Positions 1,947 to 17,696 of a DNA stretch of 33,695 nt are shown here, in pieces. The position numbers were made by a program, and so were the translations under genes. The first letter of the stretch is position 1. Each line of letters begins with the position of its first letter. The notes under the pieces were generated by a model. The model was not told the origin of the DNA, did not search any database, and was given only the letters and a program-made list of their open reading frames with translations. Source of the DNA: Candidatus Methanofastidiosia archaeon (GTDB lineage: Archaea; Methanobacteriota_B; Thermococci; Methanofastidiosales; SZ-28-30); contig JBHIDS010000003.1 in assembly GCA_046760205.1 (NCBI GenBank), positions 1-33,695 on the forward strand, read 5' to 3'.

Positions 1947-2654
1947 CTAAAACCTCCAAAACTTTAAAGGATCGTCAATCCTTAAAGTATCTCTCACCAA
2001 GAAAGCCTCTCCATACTGAGTGTTTATCATGGCACCATAAAATCTTGCCTTTGCCCTGGTGTGATAGAGATAGTTCTCAGCCCCTATGAATCTGTAGTTT
2101 TTTATCTCTTTTCTATTTAGAAATTGGGTTTTGAAGGCTTTTAAAGCCTCAATCTTTTTCTCAAAGTGGTTGGTGATATCCACTATGAAAGTTGGTCTAA
2201 AGGTGTCATGTACCATGTAGTAGATTAACTGGTTTGGAGAGTGAATATCTAAGTCAAGCTCGATCTTTGAAAGCCTTGCCATAAAGCAAGCCCTCTTACA
2301 GAGTTTGGAGGCTCTTGCATGATCTGGATGTCTGTCGTTCCAATAAGGTGCAAAAACTAAGGAAGGTCTTAACTTTCTAATCCTTTCTGCAAGCAAAACT
2401 CCATTCTCAAAGCTGTTTTCAATTTTACAGTCTCCAAGATTCAAATTCTCCCTCAAATCCAGCCCCAGAACCTCTGAAGATCTCTCAGCCTCTTTAAGTC
2501 TCTTTTTGAAATTTCCCCTCGAACCTAACTCACCTTTAGTTAAGTCTATTATCCCTGTCTTGTATCCTCTGGCTTTGAGCTTTGCCAAAGTCCCACCTAC
2601 TCCAAGCTCTGAATCATCTGGGTGGGCTCCCACAACTAAAACATCTATCTTCAT
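1947..2654 (-). CDS. bshB1: Bacillithiol biosynthesis deacetylase BshB1 (PIG-L/LmbE family)
   Basis: Metal motifs AHPDDxE and DRHPDH, plus DLTKGELGSRG and YGEAF. Lies between bshC and bshA. Confidence 0.9.
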   Translation of the reverse strand: MKIDVLVVGAHPDDSELGVGGTLAKLKARGYKTGIIDLTKGELGSRGNFKKRLKEAERSSEVLGLDLRENLNLGDCKIENSFENGVLLAERIRKLRPSLVFAPYWNDRHPDHARASKLCKRACFMARLSKIELDLDIHSPNQLIYYMVHDTFRPTFIVDITNHFEKKIEALKAFKTQFLNRKEIKNYRFIGAENYLYHTRAKARFYGAMINTQYGEAFLVRDTLRIDDPLKFWRF

Positions 2655-4213
2655 GTATACACCAAAATGTGGTCTCCAGCCTCTGCTTTCTCAAATTCCT
2701 TTTTCAAAAGGTCTATAAAAGTGTTTCCAAATTTAGTGAGATAATAAAATACATTCAGCCTTCTTTCCTGAAGCCTTGATAAGGGAAAGAGGTTGTTGTG
2801 AGCCTTTTCAATCTGAGATCTTAGGATTTCATTTTTCATCTTTACAGAACTTAAAAATTTTGACTTCAAGGAGAACAACTCATTTTCAATTCTCTTACGT
2901 GATGCAAGGGTTGCTCTTTTCAAATTTGGATCTATGGATTCTGCATAATTTGAAATTTCATCGAATTCTTTAAGAATTCCTTTAGAGAAGTCATCGAAAT
3001 TTCCTACTTCTTTCCTTAAAAGTCTTGAAATTGGGCTTTCAAACTCCCTCAACTCAAAAACTTCAAGATTGTACTTTAAAAGAATCTTTTTAATCTTTCT
3101 CTCGACGATGGTGGCACCAAATCTAGGATAGATTGCAGGCATCTCCACTCCAAAGAATTCATAGACTTTCCTCAATTGGGCAAAATATGAGATCTCGGAA
3201 GAGCCCGCCACATAAGATAGGGTGGGAAGGAGATAGTCCTGAAAAACTGGTCTTGTAACAACGTTGGTGCTGAAAGAATCTATTTCAGAGTGTAAAAGCT
3301 CTTCAAACTCCTCTCTTTTGTAAACTCTTTCAGAAACCCTGAACTTGCTCCCATCGAACTCAACCCTCTCTCTTCTCCCATCCTGTATCAAAAAGAGGTT
3401 GCAGCTCCCCAAAACCTTGTGGAGCTTAGGTTTGTACCCTCTTTCTCTTAGCTTTTCAGAGGAGGCTTTAACAAGCTTTGAGATTTTTGTTGGATTTTCA
3501 ATGAGCCTCTCACAGAATTTGGGCATGAACTTTCTCAAAGGGTGAGGTTCTATCAAAATCAAACCATAATTTGAGAACAACCTACTCATGATTCTTGAGA
3601 AGTACTCCCCAAGATTTGTAGATTTTTCAGCCTCTTTTTTAAGCATAAGGATAAAAAAATCCTTGAACTCACTCTCAGATGTGGTTTCATCCATATTTTC
3701 AATCAATTCAAAAACGTTTACCTCACCTGTTTTTATGTCAGAAATACTTTTTTTTTCTATCTTGCCTTTAAGTTCAAGCTTTTCAGGACGGTTGTCTTTT
3801 AGAATATAAGTAGATGCAATCTCCTCAAAGTCATGATCCTCTGAGGCATTCCAGAATAGGGGCACGCACTTTATATTCCTTTTCTTCAACCTCTCACAAA
3901 GTATGATGGCTGTGAGAGCCTTGTAGATGGTAAATAGTGATCCTGTAAAGATTCCTGCTTGCTGTCCAGAAACAACAACATAGGTATCCTCACTTAAAAG
4001 GGTTTCTAGATTCTCAAAGACCTTGTCTCCAGCTTCGATTCTCTTATTGTACTCCCTTAAAACCTTCAAAAGGCTTTCCCTATCTATTTCTCTATTAGAA
4101 ATTTCAATTTTTCTGTAGTCTTTGGCATAGAAGTCTTTCAACTTCTCAAAGTTCAAAATATAATCGTAAGCTATCGTTCCTTTCTTCAAGATCTTGTTCA
4201 TATCTAATTGCAT
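2651..4213 (-). CDS. bshC: Bacillithiol biosynthesis cysteine-adding enzyme BshC
   Basis: GQQAGIFTGxLFTIYKAL, WNASEDHDFEEI, SxNVVTRPVFQDYLLP, YVAGSSEISYF and LQER are BshC/YllA motifs. 520 aa; ATGA overlap with bshB1. Confidence 0.92.
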   Translation of the reverse strand: MQLDMNKILKKGTIAYDYILNFEKLKDFYAKDYRKIEISNREIDRESLLKVLREYNKRIEAGDKVFENLETLLSEDTYVVVSGQQAGIFTGSLFTIYKALTAIILCERLKKRNIKCVPLFWNASEDHDFEEIASTYILKDNRPEKLELKGKIEKKSISDIKTGEVNVFELIENMDETTSESEFKDFFILMLKKEAEKSTNLGEYFSRIMSRLFSNYGLILIEPHPLRKFMPKFCERLIENPTKISKLVKASSEKLRERGYKPKLHKVLGSCNLFLIQDGRRERVEFDGSKFRVSERVYKREEFEELLHSEIDSFSTNVVTRPVFQDYLLPTLSYVAGSSEISYFAQLRKVYEFFGVEMPAIYPRFGATIVERKIKKILLKYNLEVFELREFESPISRLLRKEVGNFDDFSKGILKEFDEISNYAESIDPNLKRATLASRKRIENELFSLKSKFLSSVKMKNEILRSQIEKAHNNLFPLSRLQERRLNVFYYLTKFGNTFIDLLKKEFEKAEAGDHILVYT

Positions 4214-13870: not shown

Positions 13871-15478
13871 ATGAGTATCAAAAAAGCCAAAAGCGAAAAG
13901 AGAGCTTTCGTAATTGGCCTCGATGGTGCAACCTTTGATTTGATAGAGCCTTGGATTGATAAAGGAGAATTGCCTAACCTCTCAGAATTATCAAAAGAAA
14001 GTGCAAGAGGAAAGCTTCTCTCCACAATTCCTCTCTTGAGTCCCCCAGCATGGGCTTCCTTTGCAACAGGTTGCAACCCTGGGAAACATGGGATATTTGA
14101 TTTCTACATCAAAGCCTGCAGAACCTATGAAAAAGCTCCAGTTAGTTCAAGAACTGTGGCATCTGAAACTCTATGGAAAATCTTGGAAAGAAACGGCAAA
14201 AAAATTGGTTTGCTCAACGTTCCGCTAACTTATCCTCCAATTGAAATAAAGGGATTCATGGTCTCAGGCTTAGGGGCTCCGAGTTTTGAAAGTGAGTTTA
14301 CCTACCCTTCGAATTTGAAAGATGAATTGAAGAAAGTCATTGGAGACTATGTAATCGATGTAGAGTATGACCTACATCAAAAGATAGACGTTGATGAATT
14401 CTCAAAAGATTTAGAAAAGATGATAGAATTTAGGAAGAGGGCTTGTATTTTTCTCATGGAAAAATATTCTTGGGATTTTTTCATGGTGGTTTTTGTGGGT
14501 ATTGATAGAATTCAGCATTTGGGATGGGAAAAAAATTCAAATGAATTCAAGGCTATTCTAAAAATCCATAAAAAGATAGACGAGGCTATTGGCGAGATTC
14601 TTTCAAAGCTTGATGAAAATACCATCGTCGTTATCCTATCTGATCATGGATTTCATCAGGTTTACAAGAAGTTTTGTGTGAACACATTTCTAAAGAAGTT
14701 GGGATTGTTGAAAACCAGAAGAAGGCTTGATATTCTTTTCTTTTTTTATCAATTTTTTGAGTTGTCAATAAGAAAACTTCCAAGTTTCGTTAAGAGAAGA
14801 ATTTTGAGAATATTTGATTCTTTTATCTCGAAATATAAGAAGAAAACCTTTATCAGCAATATAAATTGGCAAAAAACCAAAGCCTACATGGATTCACAAT
14901 TTGGTATTTCAATAAACCTAAAGAAAAGAGAACCTCAGGGAATCGTCGATCTCGATGAATGTGAGAAAATAAAGAATTTCTTAATCAAAAATCTCAAAGA
15001 ACTTTGCGATCCAGAAACTGGTGAAAAAATCATCAAAGCTGCTTTCAAAAGAGAAGAGATTTACTCTGGAAATCATTTATCTGAATCTCCAGATATCCTT
15101 TTTTCATTGAAACCTGGATACAACACTTCTGAAAAGTTGATTTCAAAGATCACATCTCAACAAACGAATACATCCGGATTTCATTCGATGAATGGAATCT
15201 TTATGATAAGAGATAGAAGGGTTATCGAAAAAAAGAGTATTGAAGAGGCAAGAATCGTAGACATCACTCCAACTATCTTATATTTGATGGGAGTTCCAGT
15301 TCCAAAGAGCATGGATGGAAGAGTCTTGACCGAGTTGTTCAAAAAGGAGTATCTAAAATCCAATCCAATAGAATATGTAAAAGAAGACATAAAGGTAAAA
15401 AAAACAAAACTTGATGTTTATTCAAAGGAAGATCAAGAAAGGATTGAAAAAAGGTTAAAGGGGTTGGGTTATCTCTAA
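13871..15478 (+). CDS. Alkaline phosphatase superfamily protein (type I phosphodiesterase/nucleotide pyrophosphatase-like)
   Basis: IGLDGAT, SPPAWASFATG, DRIQH, LSDHGF, GFHSMNG, DITPTIL and the C-terminal RLKGLGYL. Confidence 0.88.
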   Translation: MSIKKAKSEKRAFVIGLDGATFDLIEPWIDKGELPNLSELSKESARGKLLSTIPLLSPPAWASFATGCNPGKHGIFDFYIKACRTYEKAPVSSRTVASETLWKILERNGKKIGLLNVPLTYPPIEIKGFMVSGLGAPSFESEFTYPSNLKDELKKVIGDYVIDVEYDLHQKIDVDEFSKDLEKMIEFRKRACIFLMEKYSWDFFMVVFVGIDRIQHLGWEKNSNEFKAILKIHKKIDEAIGEILSKLDENTIVVILSDHGFHQVYKKFCVNTFLKKLGLLKTRRRLDILFFFYQFFELSIRKLPSFVKRRILRIFDSFISKYKKKTFISNINWQKTKAYMDSQFGISINLKKREPQGIVDLDECEKIKNFLIKNLKELCDPETGEKIIKAAFKREEIYSGNHLSESPDILFSLKPGYNTSEKLISKITSQQTNTSGFHSMNGIFMIRDRRVIEKKSIEEARIVDITPTILYLMGVPVPKSMDGRVLTELFKKEYLKSNPIEYVKEDIKVKKTKLDVYSKEDQERIEKRLKGLGYL

Positions 15479-15776
15479 AGTCTTATAAAATTTGATTTTG
15501 TTGAGTGAACAAAAATAGGCTTTGGGCTTGGCATTTGAAGGATGTTGGCAAAAAGAATTAGGGAACTTTATTTCAGATATGCAACCAAAAGCTAATCCCC
15601 ACTTAGATTTCTTGGTTAGTTTTTTGGAATTATTAGACAATCCCATGTGAATAGAAAAATTTATAAAGAAATAAAAGCCATAAAGAAGTAGAAAGATTCA
15701 CTCAGAATGAGCATTTGCGTATTGCGTATATCCCTAACGTTAGGCGACATTTTGCTCGTTAACCAGGAAGATTAGA

Positions 15777-17291
15777 ATGTCCACTGTTGATCCTAGAATC
15801 ATGGAACTTGCAATAGAAGTAGCGAAAAAGTCGAAACCAGAATCTAATAGTCGGATTCATCTAAAAGTTGGTGTAGTTATCGTTAAAAAGGGAAAGGTCT
15901 TAGAGACAGGTTGCAGAGGAGAATTATGCGTGGGAGAACATGCAGAATATACTGTGATTGAAAGAAAATTGAAGAATAGAGATTTAACAGGTTCTGTACT
16001 ATATACTACTCTGGAACCTTGCACAACTCGAAAACATCCCAAAATACCATGTGCTAAATGGATAGTTAAGAGAAGAATACATACAGTGGTAATAGGAATT
16101 TTAGACCCGAATCCAGAAATCCGAGGTAAGGGAGTATTGTTTTTGAGAGAAAATAACATCTTGGTGGAACATTTTCCTGCCGAATTACAATTGAAAATCG
16201 AGGAAATAAATAAAGACTTCATAAAACAAATCAAAAAGAAACTATCTTTTGATGACGAATCCTCAATTGAAGCTCCTTCCGATTATGAAAAGAAACCATT
16301 ATACGCTGCGAGCATAAATGACTTATCGTTGGAATCTATTAGATTCTATTTTCAACGCATTAACTCAAAGATTCCTGTCCCATCGGAAGAACTTTGGCAA
16401 TTTTTCTTGAAAAGAGGTTTTTTGATCATTTCTGGGAAGAAAAGAATCTTAGTTCCAACAGTAGCAGGGCTTCTCCTGTTTGGAAAGGATCCGGAAACCT
16501 TCTTAGTTCAAAGTAAAATAAAAGCAGACTGTTTTCGTGGAAATGAACCGGTTGAAACAATCGATCATTTAGACATTAGAGGACCACTCCCTAAAATAAT
16601 AGACGAAACTACAAAATTCTTCCTTAGAAACATGAAGAGTGCCATGAGGATTGAAGGATTTTCGAGAGTCGAGATTACCGAGTATCCTCTGGAAGCATTA
16701 CGAGAAGCTGTTCGAAATGCTGTAATTCATAGAAATTATGCGATAGAGGGTGCTACTGTGATGGTTAAGATGTTTAGAGATTGGGTTATCATAGAAAGTC
16801 CTGGACTTCTCCCACATCCCTTAACTTTAGAAAAAATTCGCTCCTTGAATTATAAACCAGTTTCAAGAAATCCAATTATAGCGAGGGCGATGTTTGATAT
16901 GAAATTTATGGAAGAAAGAGGAGGCGGAATTAGGAGGATGCACGACGAGATGTTAAATCATGGGCTAAAAGAGCCAATCTTTAATTACGATTCGGGTTAT
17001 TTTACTGTGACTTTCCACGGTCCTGGTGAAAAGATACTGGACATTCACCCCCAAAAAGTAACAATAGTTTATGCAATTGAGCCAGCCAAACTTGCTTTGC
17101 TCAATGAACGACAAAAGGGCATTCTAAAGTATCTTCTTGAGCATGGGAGGATAACAAGTGAGGAATGTACGAGACACTTTAACATCACCAGGGATACAGC
17201 AAACAGAGACTTTAAGAGATTGATTGAAAAGGGATTAATAGAAAAAAGAGGAATAGGACGGGCAACTCATTATGTTCTTAAAGAGAGATAG
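15777..17291 (+). CDS. Zn-dependent deaminase domain fused to a RecG-C/HATPase_c_4-like domain and a C-terminal winged HTH
   Basis: N-terminus has HAE...LEPC-x9-C and DPNP. The middle has PTVAGLLLFGKDP, YPLEALREAVRNAVIHRNY, ESPG, SRNPII and EERGGG. The C-terminus is DeoR-like (LNERQ...TANRDFKRLIEKGLI...G.GR). Confidence 0.8.
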   Translation: MSTVDPRIMELAIEVAKKSKPESNSRIHLKVGVVIVKKGKVLETGCRGELCVGEHAEYTVIERKLKNRDLTGSVLYTTLEPCTTRKHPKIPCAKWIVKRRIHTVVIGILDPNPEIRGKGVLFLRENNILVEHFPAELQLKIEEINKDFIKQIKKKLSFDDESSIEAPSDYEKKPLYAASINDLSLESIRFYFQRINSKIPVPSEELWQFFLKRGFLIISGKKRILVPTVAGLLLFGKDPETFLVQSKIKADCFRGNEPVETIDHLDIRGPLPKIIDETTKFFLRNMKSAMRIEGFSRVEITEYPLEALREAVRNAVIHRNYAIEGATVMVKMFRDWVIIESPGLLPHPLTLEKIRSLNYKPVSRNPIIARAMFDMKFMEERGGGIRRMHDEMLNHGLKEPIFNYDSGYFTVTFHGPGEKILDIHPQKVTIVYAIEPAKLALLNERQKGILKYLLEHGRITSEECTRHFNITRDTANRDFKRLIEKGLIEKRGIGRATHYVLKER

Positions 17292-17294
17292 ATC

Positions 17295-17404
17295 TTGCGT
17301 CAGATTTACGTCAGAAGTTCAACATTTTGCGTCAGATATTATTTTCTCAAAGAATAATGCTTCCTGTCAGATTTACATCTGGTTTTTAAAATTTTGCGTC
17401 AGAT
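17295..17404 (+). repeat. Five copies of a TTGCGTCAGAT-like motif
   Basis: TTGCGTCAGAT at 17295, 17327 and 17394; TTACGTCAGAA at 17306; CTGTCAGAT at 17364. Confidence 0.75.
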
Positions 17405-17430
17405 AGTAGATTTATGTAAGCAAAACGGTC

Positions 17431-17519
17431 GCCTAACACAGCATAAAAGGTTCGTGCTTTACGACATTTACCCAAATTTTTGCTTCGCAAAAACTTCTTT
17501 TATGTTGCTTTCGTTAGCC
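17431..17519 (+). other. attC-like recombination site (89 bp)
   Basis: R'' GCCTAAC (RYYYAAC, 17431-37); arm CATAAAAG (17442-49) pairs with CTTTTATG (17497-504); inner hairpin TTTTTGC-TTC-GCAAAAA (17477-93); R'-like GTTAGCC (17513-19). Confidence 0.65.
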
Positions 17520-17696
17520 AATATACTGCCAGAGAAAGTACTTCACATATATTGTTTTGCAAACCAGAGATTTTTGTGCAAAGTGATACTGAATAATGCA
17601 TTATTGATTGTGAAAAGGGTGATTAGGATTTAGTTCCAAACCCAGCTCTCCAAAAAGCTTATATTGATGTTTCTAAACATCTTAGGAGTGGCTTGA

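Follow-up and report, generated by a model that had tools for sequence, protein, structure and literature searches.

A probable integron-type mobile gene cassette in an archaeal glycosylation locus

The locus and its gene

The DNA analysed here (the window, 33,695 nucleotides) is one entire 33.7-kb contig, JBHIDS010000003.1, of the metagenome-assembled genome (MAG) of a Candidatus Methanofastidiosia archaeon (GCA_046760205.1; G000 in our numbering). The MAG comprises 2.25 Mb in 285 contigs, is 92% complete, has a G+C content of 39% and contains no 16S rRNA gene. The genes of the window include an STT3/AglB-type oligosaccharyltransferase, a flippase, epimerases and many glycosyltransferases. 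The MAG encodes TBP, which among 14 control genomes was restricted to the four archaea; given this and the AglB, glycosyltransferase and flippase gene content, the label ‘archaeal glycosylation locus’ used in a preliminary description of the window is right. Within this locus lies a unit of one gene and one structured site resembling the attC recombination sites of integrons, which we interpret as a probable mobile gene cassette. The features of the unit and its upstream border are as follows.

15622-15739, + strand: B element, repeated and promoter-like, a putative attI-like landing site whose last base is the crossover G (15739)
15660-15668, + strand: TATA-like box TTTATAAAG, preceded by a purine-rich GAAAAA and conserved in the B copy on contig C56
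15733-15744, no strand assigned: junction palindrome CCTAACGTTAGG, with the cassette boundary between G 15739 and T 15740
15739-15748: 5' core GTTAGGCGAC, read directly from the sequence
15740-17513, + strand: gene cassette (TTAGGCGAC ... attC ... G), delimited by homology limits against loci L094-L101
15777-17291, + strand: open reading frame (ORF) of 504 amino acids, with domains from Pfam, NCBIfam and PADLOC scans
17295-17410, + strand: four GTCAGAT-containing repeats (at 17299, 17331, 17366 and 17398), 3' of the ORF and inside the cassette
17428-17519, + strand: attC-type site, from its match to covariance model R1
Parts of the site: R'' 17428-17437 (GTCGCCTAAC); unpaired A 17438; L'' 17439-17450; hairpin 17452-17464; conserved CCCAAAT 17471-17477; hairpin 17477-17493; L' 17494-17507; 5-nt spacer 17508-17512; R' 17513-17519
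17431-17437 and 17513-17519: the motifs GCCTAAC and GTTAGCC, bordering an element of 89 nt

The ORF combines a cytidine/dCMP-type deaminase domain (residues 5-107) with an HATPase_c_4 domain (325-413) and a winged helix-turn-helix (442-492), and in the PADLOC scan its middle part aligned with proteins associated with prokaryotic Argonaute. We identified 628 homologues at E <= 0.001, including a sister family in which a SIR2_2 domain replaces the deaminase. The exchange of one effector head for another is suggestive of a protein of the defence type, and from its domains the product is probably a defence or regulatory protein. The gene had been described as functionally unrelated to its neighbours, and the domain scans, which set a deaminase fusion among glycosylation genes, agree. 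Vertical inheritance at this position had been named as the alternative to insertion; the full deaminase-HATPase_c_4-winged helix fusion was found in none of 40 relatives.

A family of attC-like sites

A direct check of the sequence confirmed the letters and the ORF of the preliminary description, including the exact complementarity between GTTAGGCGAC at 15739-15748 and GTCGCCTAAC at 17428-17437, the latter separated from the ORF stop by a 136-nt spacer. This complementarity had been regarded as the hallmark of an integrated cassette. Alone, it is at chance level and proves nothing: when the two spacers were shuffled, 950 of 5000 trials (19%) yielded at least one perfect 10-nt inverted match between them, and perfect 10-nt inverted pairs no more than 2 kb apart number 301 in the window, versus a mean of 143 in 20 shuffles. 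The feature rises above chance because of family membership, covariation, cassette boundaries and a neighbour-complementarity test; the case for the cassette is a comparative one and does not lie in the match itself.

Folding predictions give 17425-17525 the form of an imperfect hairpin with two inner hairpins. The structure is stronger on the bottom strand (-16 kcal/mol, z -3.3, equalled by 0 of 200 shuffles) than on the top strand (-11.4 kcal/mol, z -1.8, equalled by 7 of 200). A look for extrahelical bases had been suggested; one unpaired base lies on the '' arm, and the L stem has no conserved bulge. A covariance model of the site, R1, run over the window with filters off, matched 17418-17531 with 68 bits (E 8e-13), the runner-up scoring 14 bits (E 0.95).

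Searches of the MAG for similar sites were productive. Five iterations of nhmmer from the window copy gave 46 matches, 39 of them at E < 1e-3, and R1 recognized 35 sites at E <= 0.01, of which 31 were its own seeds. The window cassette, which had been called an orphan, is therefore single at its locus but not in its genome. In their 5' half the aligned copies read C-R-Y-A-T-A-A-C, one unpaired A, a stem of 10-12 bp, a hairpin and TTCRCCCAAAT; the 3' half consists of another hairpin, whose loop is often cTTCGg, then ACTTC, the other half of the stem, a 5-nt spacer (mostly AAAAC) and G-TTA-KRY-GAAAT. The terminal part of the sites is a partly conserved three-way junction. The R boxes TAAC/GTTA are nearly invariant, with the column pairs TA in 29 of 31 copies, AT in 27 and 24, and CG in 21. 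The textbook consensus for attC R boxes is RYYYAAC / GTTRRRY, and GCCTAAC, the R'' of the window, fits the former.

The R stems, L stems and inner hairpins were set by hand on the 31 aligned copies because RNAalifold predicted only 4 pairs on the MAFFT alignment. Over the 26 modelled pairs, 76.9% of cells are paired versus 63.5% in shuffles. Changes on both sides of a pair occur in 151 cells versus 71 in shuffles, a value reached by 0 of 500 shuffles, and control alignments with slid partners have 37-53 such cells. G-T and A-C mismatches number 28 and 31 in the R stem, 41 and 25 in the L stem (where one of the G-T is conserved) and 4 and 8 in the second hairpin; their similar frequencies argue against a role in the transcript only.

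The sites lie between co-oriented ORFs, often starting 10-70 nt past a stop codon and ending 10-20 nt ahead of the next start. On seven contigs (C13, C31, C49, C73, C58, C118 and C167) they form same-strand clusters with a spacing of 0.5-2 kb. If cleavage falls at G|TT in R', each site hands the tail of its R' to the next cassette, and that tail should therefore pair with the R'' of that cassette. We compared each R'' with the reverse-complemented R' of its neighbour upstream and obtained a mean of 8.2 of 13 positions (n=14 pairs), versus 6.8 for a site's own R' (n=32) and 6.6 for non-neighbours (n=1592; resampling p ~ 3e-4). Four pairs score 11-12, and the two at 12/13 exceed every null pair. 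For the window the score is 11/13 with the junction upstream and 7 with its own R'; its R'' (17428-17437) is complementary at 10/10 positions to the cassette's own 5' end and at 7/13 to its own R'.

The genes between the MAG sites include methyltransferases, transporters and hypotheticals, and this cargo is typical of integron cassettes as outlined by Ghaly 2022 (PMC9668308). A nucleotidyltransferase/HepT (MNT/HepT) toxin-antitoxin pair lies between two attCs at C167:1952-2888, and a split N6_Mtase/HSDR_N/Methylase_S restriction-modification enzyme lies between a B element and an attC at C56:330-3071. At C13:12496-13778, within an attC array, an amino-acid permease is split into two ORFs (237 + 188 amino acids); it is a decaying cassette gene.

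The family occurs in 7 of 40 relatives and in 0 of 3 from the same family-level group. A scan of 185,579 species genomes with a family-derived pattern listed at least 118 stretches, from which 80 related loci of 8 kb each were taken; results for these loci and their hosts hold among the matches listed. R1 confirmed 72 of the 80 and found 26 further matches in them. The archaeal hosts are Methanophagales, Methanosarcinales, Methanoperedens, Methanocellales, Archaeoglobales, Thermoplasmata, Altiarchaeales, Aenigmatarchaeota, Promethearchaeota and Pacearchaeota, and the bacterial hosts include Dehalococcoidia, Aminicenantes, Ignavibacteria, Cloacimonadota, Caldisericum and Thermodesulfobacterium. 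To judge from these matches, the family is shared by many phyla of archaea and bacteria.

Cassette boundaries and other genomic contexts

A protein scan of metagenome contigs returned 11 loci, of which we used ten (76-95% nucleotide identity to the window) and omitted L104 (36% protein identity). The ten show no homology to the window in their flanks, of which up to 4 kb were compared. The left limit of blastn homology is 15738 in L094, L095, L096 and L100, 15737 in L097, 15735 in L099 and 15748 in L098, and hence falls at 15735-15738 in six of the seven loci that possess a left end. The right limit is 17507 in L097 and L101, 17478 in L099 and 17453 in L098, where the hairpin contains an insertion; the remaining loci run off their contigs. 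The limit near 17507 falls just ahead of the G of R' (17513). R1 recognized 14 sites in the ten loci. In L094, L095, L096, L099 and L100 an unrelated attC lies directly upstream of the gene and abuts the same G|TTAGG junction, and in L097, L098, L099 and L101 an attC follows the gene by ~130 nt, so that the gene is flanked by attC on one or both sides in 8/8 loci with enough sequence. The window was earlier held to contain an integrated cassette with its own R' half at the 5' end, and these ten homologous copies, with limits near 15735-15738 and 17507, bear this out.

Contigs from sequencing runs (for example X3 and X9), which came without cover or depth figures, served solely to show which contigs join what. 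Run X3 contains the window arrangement as well as a contig on which a different attC's 3' end directly precedes 15739, and homology on an X3 unitig continues through the hairpin into the 17499-17507 range, as in L097 and L101. The core of the site, 17434-17504, recurs with other flanks on dozens of contigs in four runs.

In L098 the first inner hairpin of the cassette's attC (2235-2425) is enlarged by an insertion exceeding 100 nt, and the outer stems of this attC are intact. The four GTCAGAT repeats (direct repeat D2), one of which makes the palindrome CAGATTTACATCTG, are retained in the homologous cassettes of L097-L101; we would guess at a putative operator for the protein's own winged helix.

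The B element upstream of the cassette

The upstream TGCGTATAT had been likened to the right end of a previous attC. Instead, TGCGTATAT..CCTAAC-G is the 3' end of the B element, which is repeated in the MAG. Further copies lie at C56:2946-3071(-) and C13:11596-11717(+), the latter heading an array of four sites, and additional B 3' ends at C58:9061-9094 and on C83 and C211. A co-oriented attC follows within 2.6 kb downstream in 4 of 6 copies. B contains the TATA-like box, a palindrome and a terminal CCTAA|GTTA. In the window the palindrome is degenerate and reads as a direct repeat of TTGCGTAT (x2), and there is one extra C (15738); the main X3 strain, without C15738, has the B consensus CCTAA|GTTA. 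By the general archaeal BRE (B recognition element)/TATA consensus, the TATA-like box at 15660 is a candidate promoter for the cassette gene.

Interpretation of the unit

We conclude, with a probability of about 0.87, that 15740-17513 is an integron-type mobile gene cassette consisting of one gene and a structure-specific site of the attC kind, similar to the SALINs (single attC sites lacking integron-integrases). We propose that the site, as single-stranded DNA, forms an R stem (..TAAC/GTTA..), an L stem that is long and covarying, and a three-way junction. The R' box would be cleaved by a tyrosine recombinase after its G, ahead of TT; with the cut there, the circular cassette would hold a complete attC and, once inserted, would have the R' tail at its 5' end. 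Here the cassette would have been inserted at G|TTA of B (15622-15739), which probably drives expression of the cassette gene, and the outcome would be a single-cassette, SALIN-like unit in an N-glycosylation locus.

A number of observations weigh against this interpretation. The R' of the window, GTTAGCC, and the common GTTATAT both fall outside the GTTRRRY consensus, the loop between R and L is 1 x 5 nt, and no bulged base is conserved in the L stem. In the neighbour comparison, 6 of the 14 pairs score no higher than 6/13. The 80 related loci were chosen by a pattern derived from the family, and part of their covariance-model score therefore arises by construction. A 1.9-kb cold-seep contig (X9, record 25) matches 15739-17438 only, at ~97% and with unlike flanks, and its homology ends past R'' and not at R'. 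Neither a circle nor an empty site nor a recombination event was seen directly; the search for an empty site in relatives was negative, and synteny was unreadable because the nearest genomes share 32-40% identity in the flanking gene. Finally, in a search with the NCBIfam model TIGR02249 (cut-off 265 bits), the best IntI match in the MAG had 84 bits and consisted of two pieces with model positions ~179-235 unmatched, and none of 34 genomes of the order reached the cut-off. By these searches the unit does not qualify as an integron proper, for which intI is required.

A linked Xer-like recombinase

The preliminary description invoked an IntI acting in trans, a proposal for which we found no support. 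Besides the MAG and its order, none of five further archaeal genomes with these sites has an IntI over the cut-off, and among the 80 related loci an IntI with its characteristic insertion occurs within 4 kb of a site in 0, and a Xer-like recombinase with an N-terminal extension in 5. This linked enzyme passes NF040815, the NCBIfam model for XerA (256.6 and 242.1 bits, cut-off 220), and stays below the IntI cut-off (239 and 215 bits). In alignment it has the catalytic R..HxxR..Y core and is without the ~40-residue IntI insertion.

In all nine cases in which this recombinase lies within 4 kb of an R1 site (L121, L143, L114, L128, L154, G006:C8, G047:C142, G045:C18 and G033:C115), it is upstream and on the same strand. 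Three more copies (L229, L230 and L073) have no R1 site within the 2.3-3.5 kb of available sequence, and none is listed on G010:C90; in L233 another recombinase, whose type was not assigned, lies downstream of a site. Directly 3' of array-type recombinase genes, 7 of 8 loci shown have the 3' layout of B (palindrome, 6-8 nt, G|TTA), the order being recombinase stop, one or two palindromes, G|TTA(G/T) and first cassette. Copies at 60% or higher identity occur in four of 41 relatives (G000, G010, G019 and G033). They are present in 4 of 8 genomes with R1 sites versus 0 of 33 without (hypergeometric ~7e-4, with kin not independent). Intact array-type enzymes are that of L121 and one of 380 residues in G049, but within the order every copy is truncated or interrupted or runs off its contig; the MAG retains the first 109 codons at the end of contig C99, and G006 has a remnant. 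A recombinase on C39, considered as a possible IntI, is a 107-residue remnant and was rejected.

The array-type recombinases of L121 (5282-6394, - strand; a Thermodesulfobacterium MAG) and L230 (1195-2337, - strand; Methanoperedenaceae) are 84% identical over 371 residues, a likeness that points to recent cross-domain transfer.

Because of its fixed linkage, the Xer-like array-type enzyme is the simplest account of an integrase for this class of sites, and we consider it possible, at somewhat less than even odds, that it and not a classical IntI fills this role. The domain specific to IntI reportedly reads extrahelical bases, and its absence from the Xer-like enzyme fits the lack of conserved bulges in the sites. 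More broadly, and still tentatively, we propose an integron-like capture system free of IntI. Its enzyme would be a Xer-family recombinase that has an N-terminal extension and no IntI insertion, and its sites would be the palindrome-bearing, attI-like B and a separate class of attC, free of the extrahelical bases, with an R stem, a loop of 1 x 5, a long L stem and the CCCAAAT junction. Its range would extend across domains (Methanophagales, Methanoperedenaceae, Thermoplasmatota, Asgard archaea, Thermodesulfobacterium, Ignavibacteria and Dehalococcoidia), and detached B sites, such as the one in this glycosylation locus, would act as landing pads equipped with promoters.

Alternative explanations

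The unit could be a classical-integron cassette moved by a canonical IntI from another cell or encoded on an unassembled contig, the Xer-like recombinase being cargo or a coincidence. The MAG is, after all, an incomplete assembly (92% in 285 contigs), and in what Ghaly 2022 (PMC9668308) reports of 75 archaeal MAGs, most integrons are CALINs (attC clusters that have no integron integrase), only 6 IntI were found, and archaeal attCs recombine with IntI1 in Escherichia coli. Among five bacterial genomes with these sites, one (G045) has IntI genes over the cut-off, six in number, together with 29 sites of the family; beside the full-length IntI on its contig C43 there is a single weak family site, 9.5 kb off. 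The lack of any IntI above the cut-off in the order and the further archaeal genomes also argues against this account, as do the 0 versus 5 of 80 loci and the invariant position and strand (9/9) of the linked recombinase, followed by a B-like site. We regard movement by a canonical IntI as plausible, though less likely than not.

The other alternatives dispense with cassettes altogether. A structured RNA between genes (a terminator, processing site or small RNA), with the gene an ordinary resident, would account for the strong covariation, the cTTCGg-type loops and the fixed place between co-oriented genes. Yet an Rfam search with the site at E <= 10 returned only three rows at chance level and no family match, the G-T and A-C mismatches reveal no bias towards a transcript strand, and neither the pairing of R'' with the upstream neighbour's R' nor the movement of gene and site as one unit with breakpoints at G|TT would be explained; this reading is highly improbable. 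Similarly improbable is a small transposon or an element resembling a miniature inverted-repeat transposable element (MITE), bounded by GTTAGGCGAC and GTCGCCTAAC as terminal inverted repeats. The 10-nt terminal complementarity suits it, as does the one contig on which homology stops right past the right-hand repeat, at 17438, but in L097, L101 and the X3 unitig homology reaches 17499-17507 through the hairpin, we saw no target-site duplication and no transposase inside the unit, and the sites form arrays with different genes in between. As for a chance inverted repeat around a vertically inherited gene, which the 19% of shuffles with a comparable match would allow, it is refuted by the comparative data (family, covariation, neighbour test, attC-flanked copies and homology limits) and opposed by the absence of the full fusion protein from 40 relatives, and its probability is negligible.

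Relation to known systems

Archaeal integrons (PMC9668308), SALINs and their attG insertion sites (10.1101/2022.09.11.507474) and the structural features of attC (PMC8946536) are already in print. The archaeal integrons reported in 2022 are, in that account, almost all integrase-less clusters, with single sites outside the count (PMC9668308). As with the integron cassettes and archaeal CALINs outlined there, the present cassettes have an ORF followed by an imperfect inverted repeat, R''-L''...L'-R', a boundary at G|TT of R' and arrays of co-oriented short genes; their attCs are more alike within a genome, their cargo includes toxin-antitoxin and restriction-modification genes, an integrase is mostly not nearby, and they occur in MAGs and are common to archaea and bacteria. 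Unlike the integron attCs of the same account, this family has a conserved CCCAAAT three-way junction and a loop of 1 x 5 nt where those attCs have an unpaired, roughly symmetric spacer and bulged bases, and the linked recombinase has no IntI insertion and is co-oriented with the cassettes. On the bottom strand, attC sites as described in PMC8946536 have a central spacer that is unpaired, extrahelical bases and a terminal structure that varies.

The unit resembles SALINs and attG insertions, as presented in 10.1101/2022.09.11.507474, in having one cassette, one attC, no nearby integrase and a chromosomal site of the G|TT type. The 33.7-kb contig has one R1 match at E < 0.9 and no tyrosine recombinase. 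Unlike the attG insertions described there, the target is the conserved end of B and not an arbitrary 5'-GWT-3' site; because B is repeated and is also found 3' of recombinase genes, the insertion point is closer to an attI.

In passing the XerA model without an IntI insertion, the linked recombinase is like archaeal XerA as characterized in Cortez et al. 2010 (PMC2958812). Unlike a housekeeping Xer, it is a second, patchy and often truncated copy with an N-terminal extension, is 37-41% identical to the housekeeping enzyme within the same genomes and adjoins cassette arrays. The R and L arms of the present sites may also resemble the arms of archaeal dif. ‘Integron-like’ simple tyrosine recombinases were treated by Smyshlyaev et al. 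2021 (PMC8138268), and the part of that paper concerned with insertion-less members describes no cassette arrays or att sites for them. Literature searches, judged by title and abstract, turned up no account of cassette arrays served by Xer-type integrases; the supplements of Ghaly 2022 may bear on the point and may already include this family or taxon.

By comparison alone, a single site has here been identified as part of a mobile cassette with base-exact limits, and the data point to a possible mover of cassettes where IntI is absent, namely a Xer-like recombinase that has an attI-like site to itself. If such an integrase exists, it would partly account for the large surplus of CALINs and SALINs relative to complete integrons and would represent a second, simpler enzyme for structure-specific cassette capture. 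Gene flow between domains in anoxic sediments would then be directly testable, given bacterial and archaeal recombinases of such close similarity.

Additional observations

The 3.9-Mb bacterial genome G045, reached through locus L146, encodes its six IntI genes over the TIGR02249 cut-off alongside many fragments. A crude regular expression found no RYYYAAC..GTTRRRY pairs beside its true IntI genes, a result that says little. An ORF of 504 amino acids between two attCs on G045:C18 was considered as a homologue of the window ORF and proved unrelated.

Upstream of the B element, the spacer 3' of a phosphodiesterase gene (window 15480-15600) resembles C58:4987-5070, C85:6867-6941 and C17:5478-5547. 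It looks attC-like by eye; R1 gave no match there and it was rejected as an attC. Paralogues of the phosphodiesterase (13871-15478 in the window) lie on C87, C198 and C86, contigs that also have attC-type sites, and some of them may themselves be cassette cargo.

Elsewhere in the window, a BshC-like protein (bacillithiol synthesis; Pfam E 3e-95) is encoded at 2651-4213 on the - strand and adjoins glycosyltransferases on this archaeal contig. Downstream of the cassette, 17560-17696 contains a promoter-proximal element of ~100 nt (..GGTGATTAGRATTTAGTTCCAAA.., then a TATA-like box) that is found upstream of genes in at least 10 copies in the MAG, twice back to back on C133. It is unrelated to the cassette and probably serves as the binding region of a regulator.

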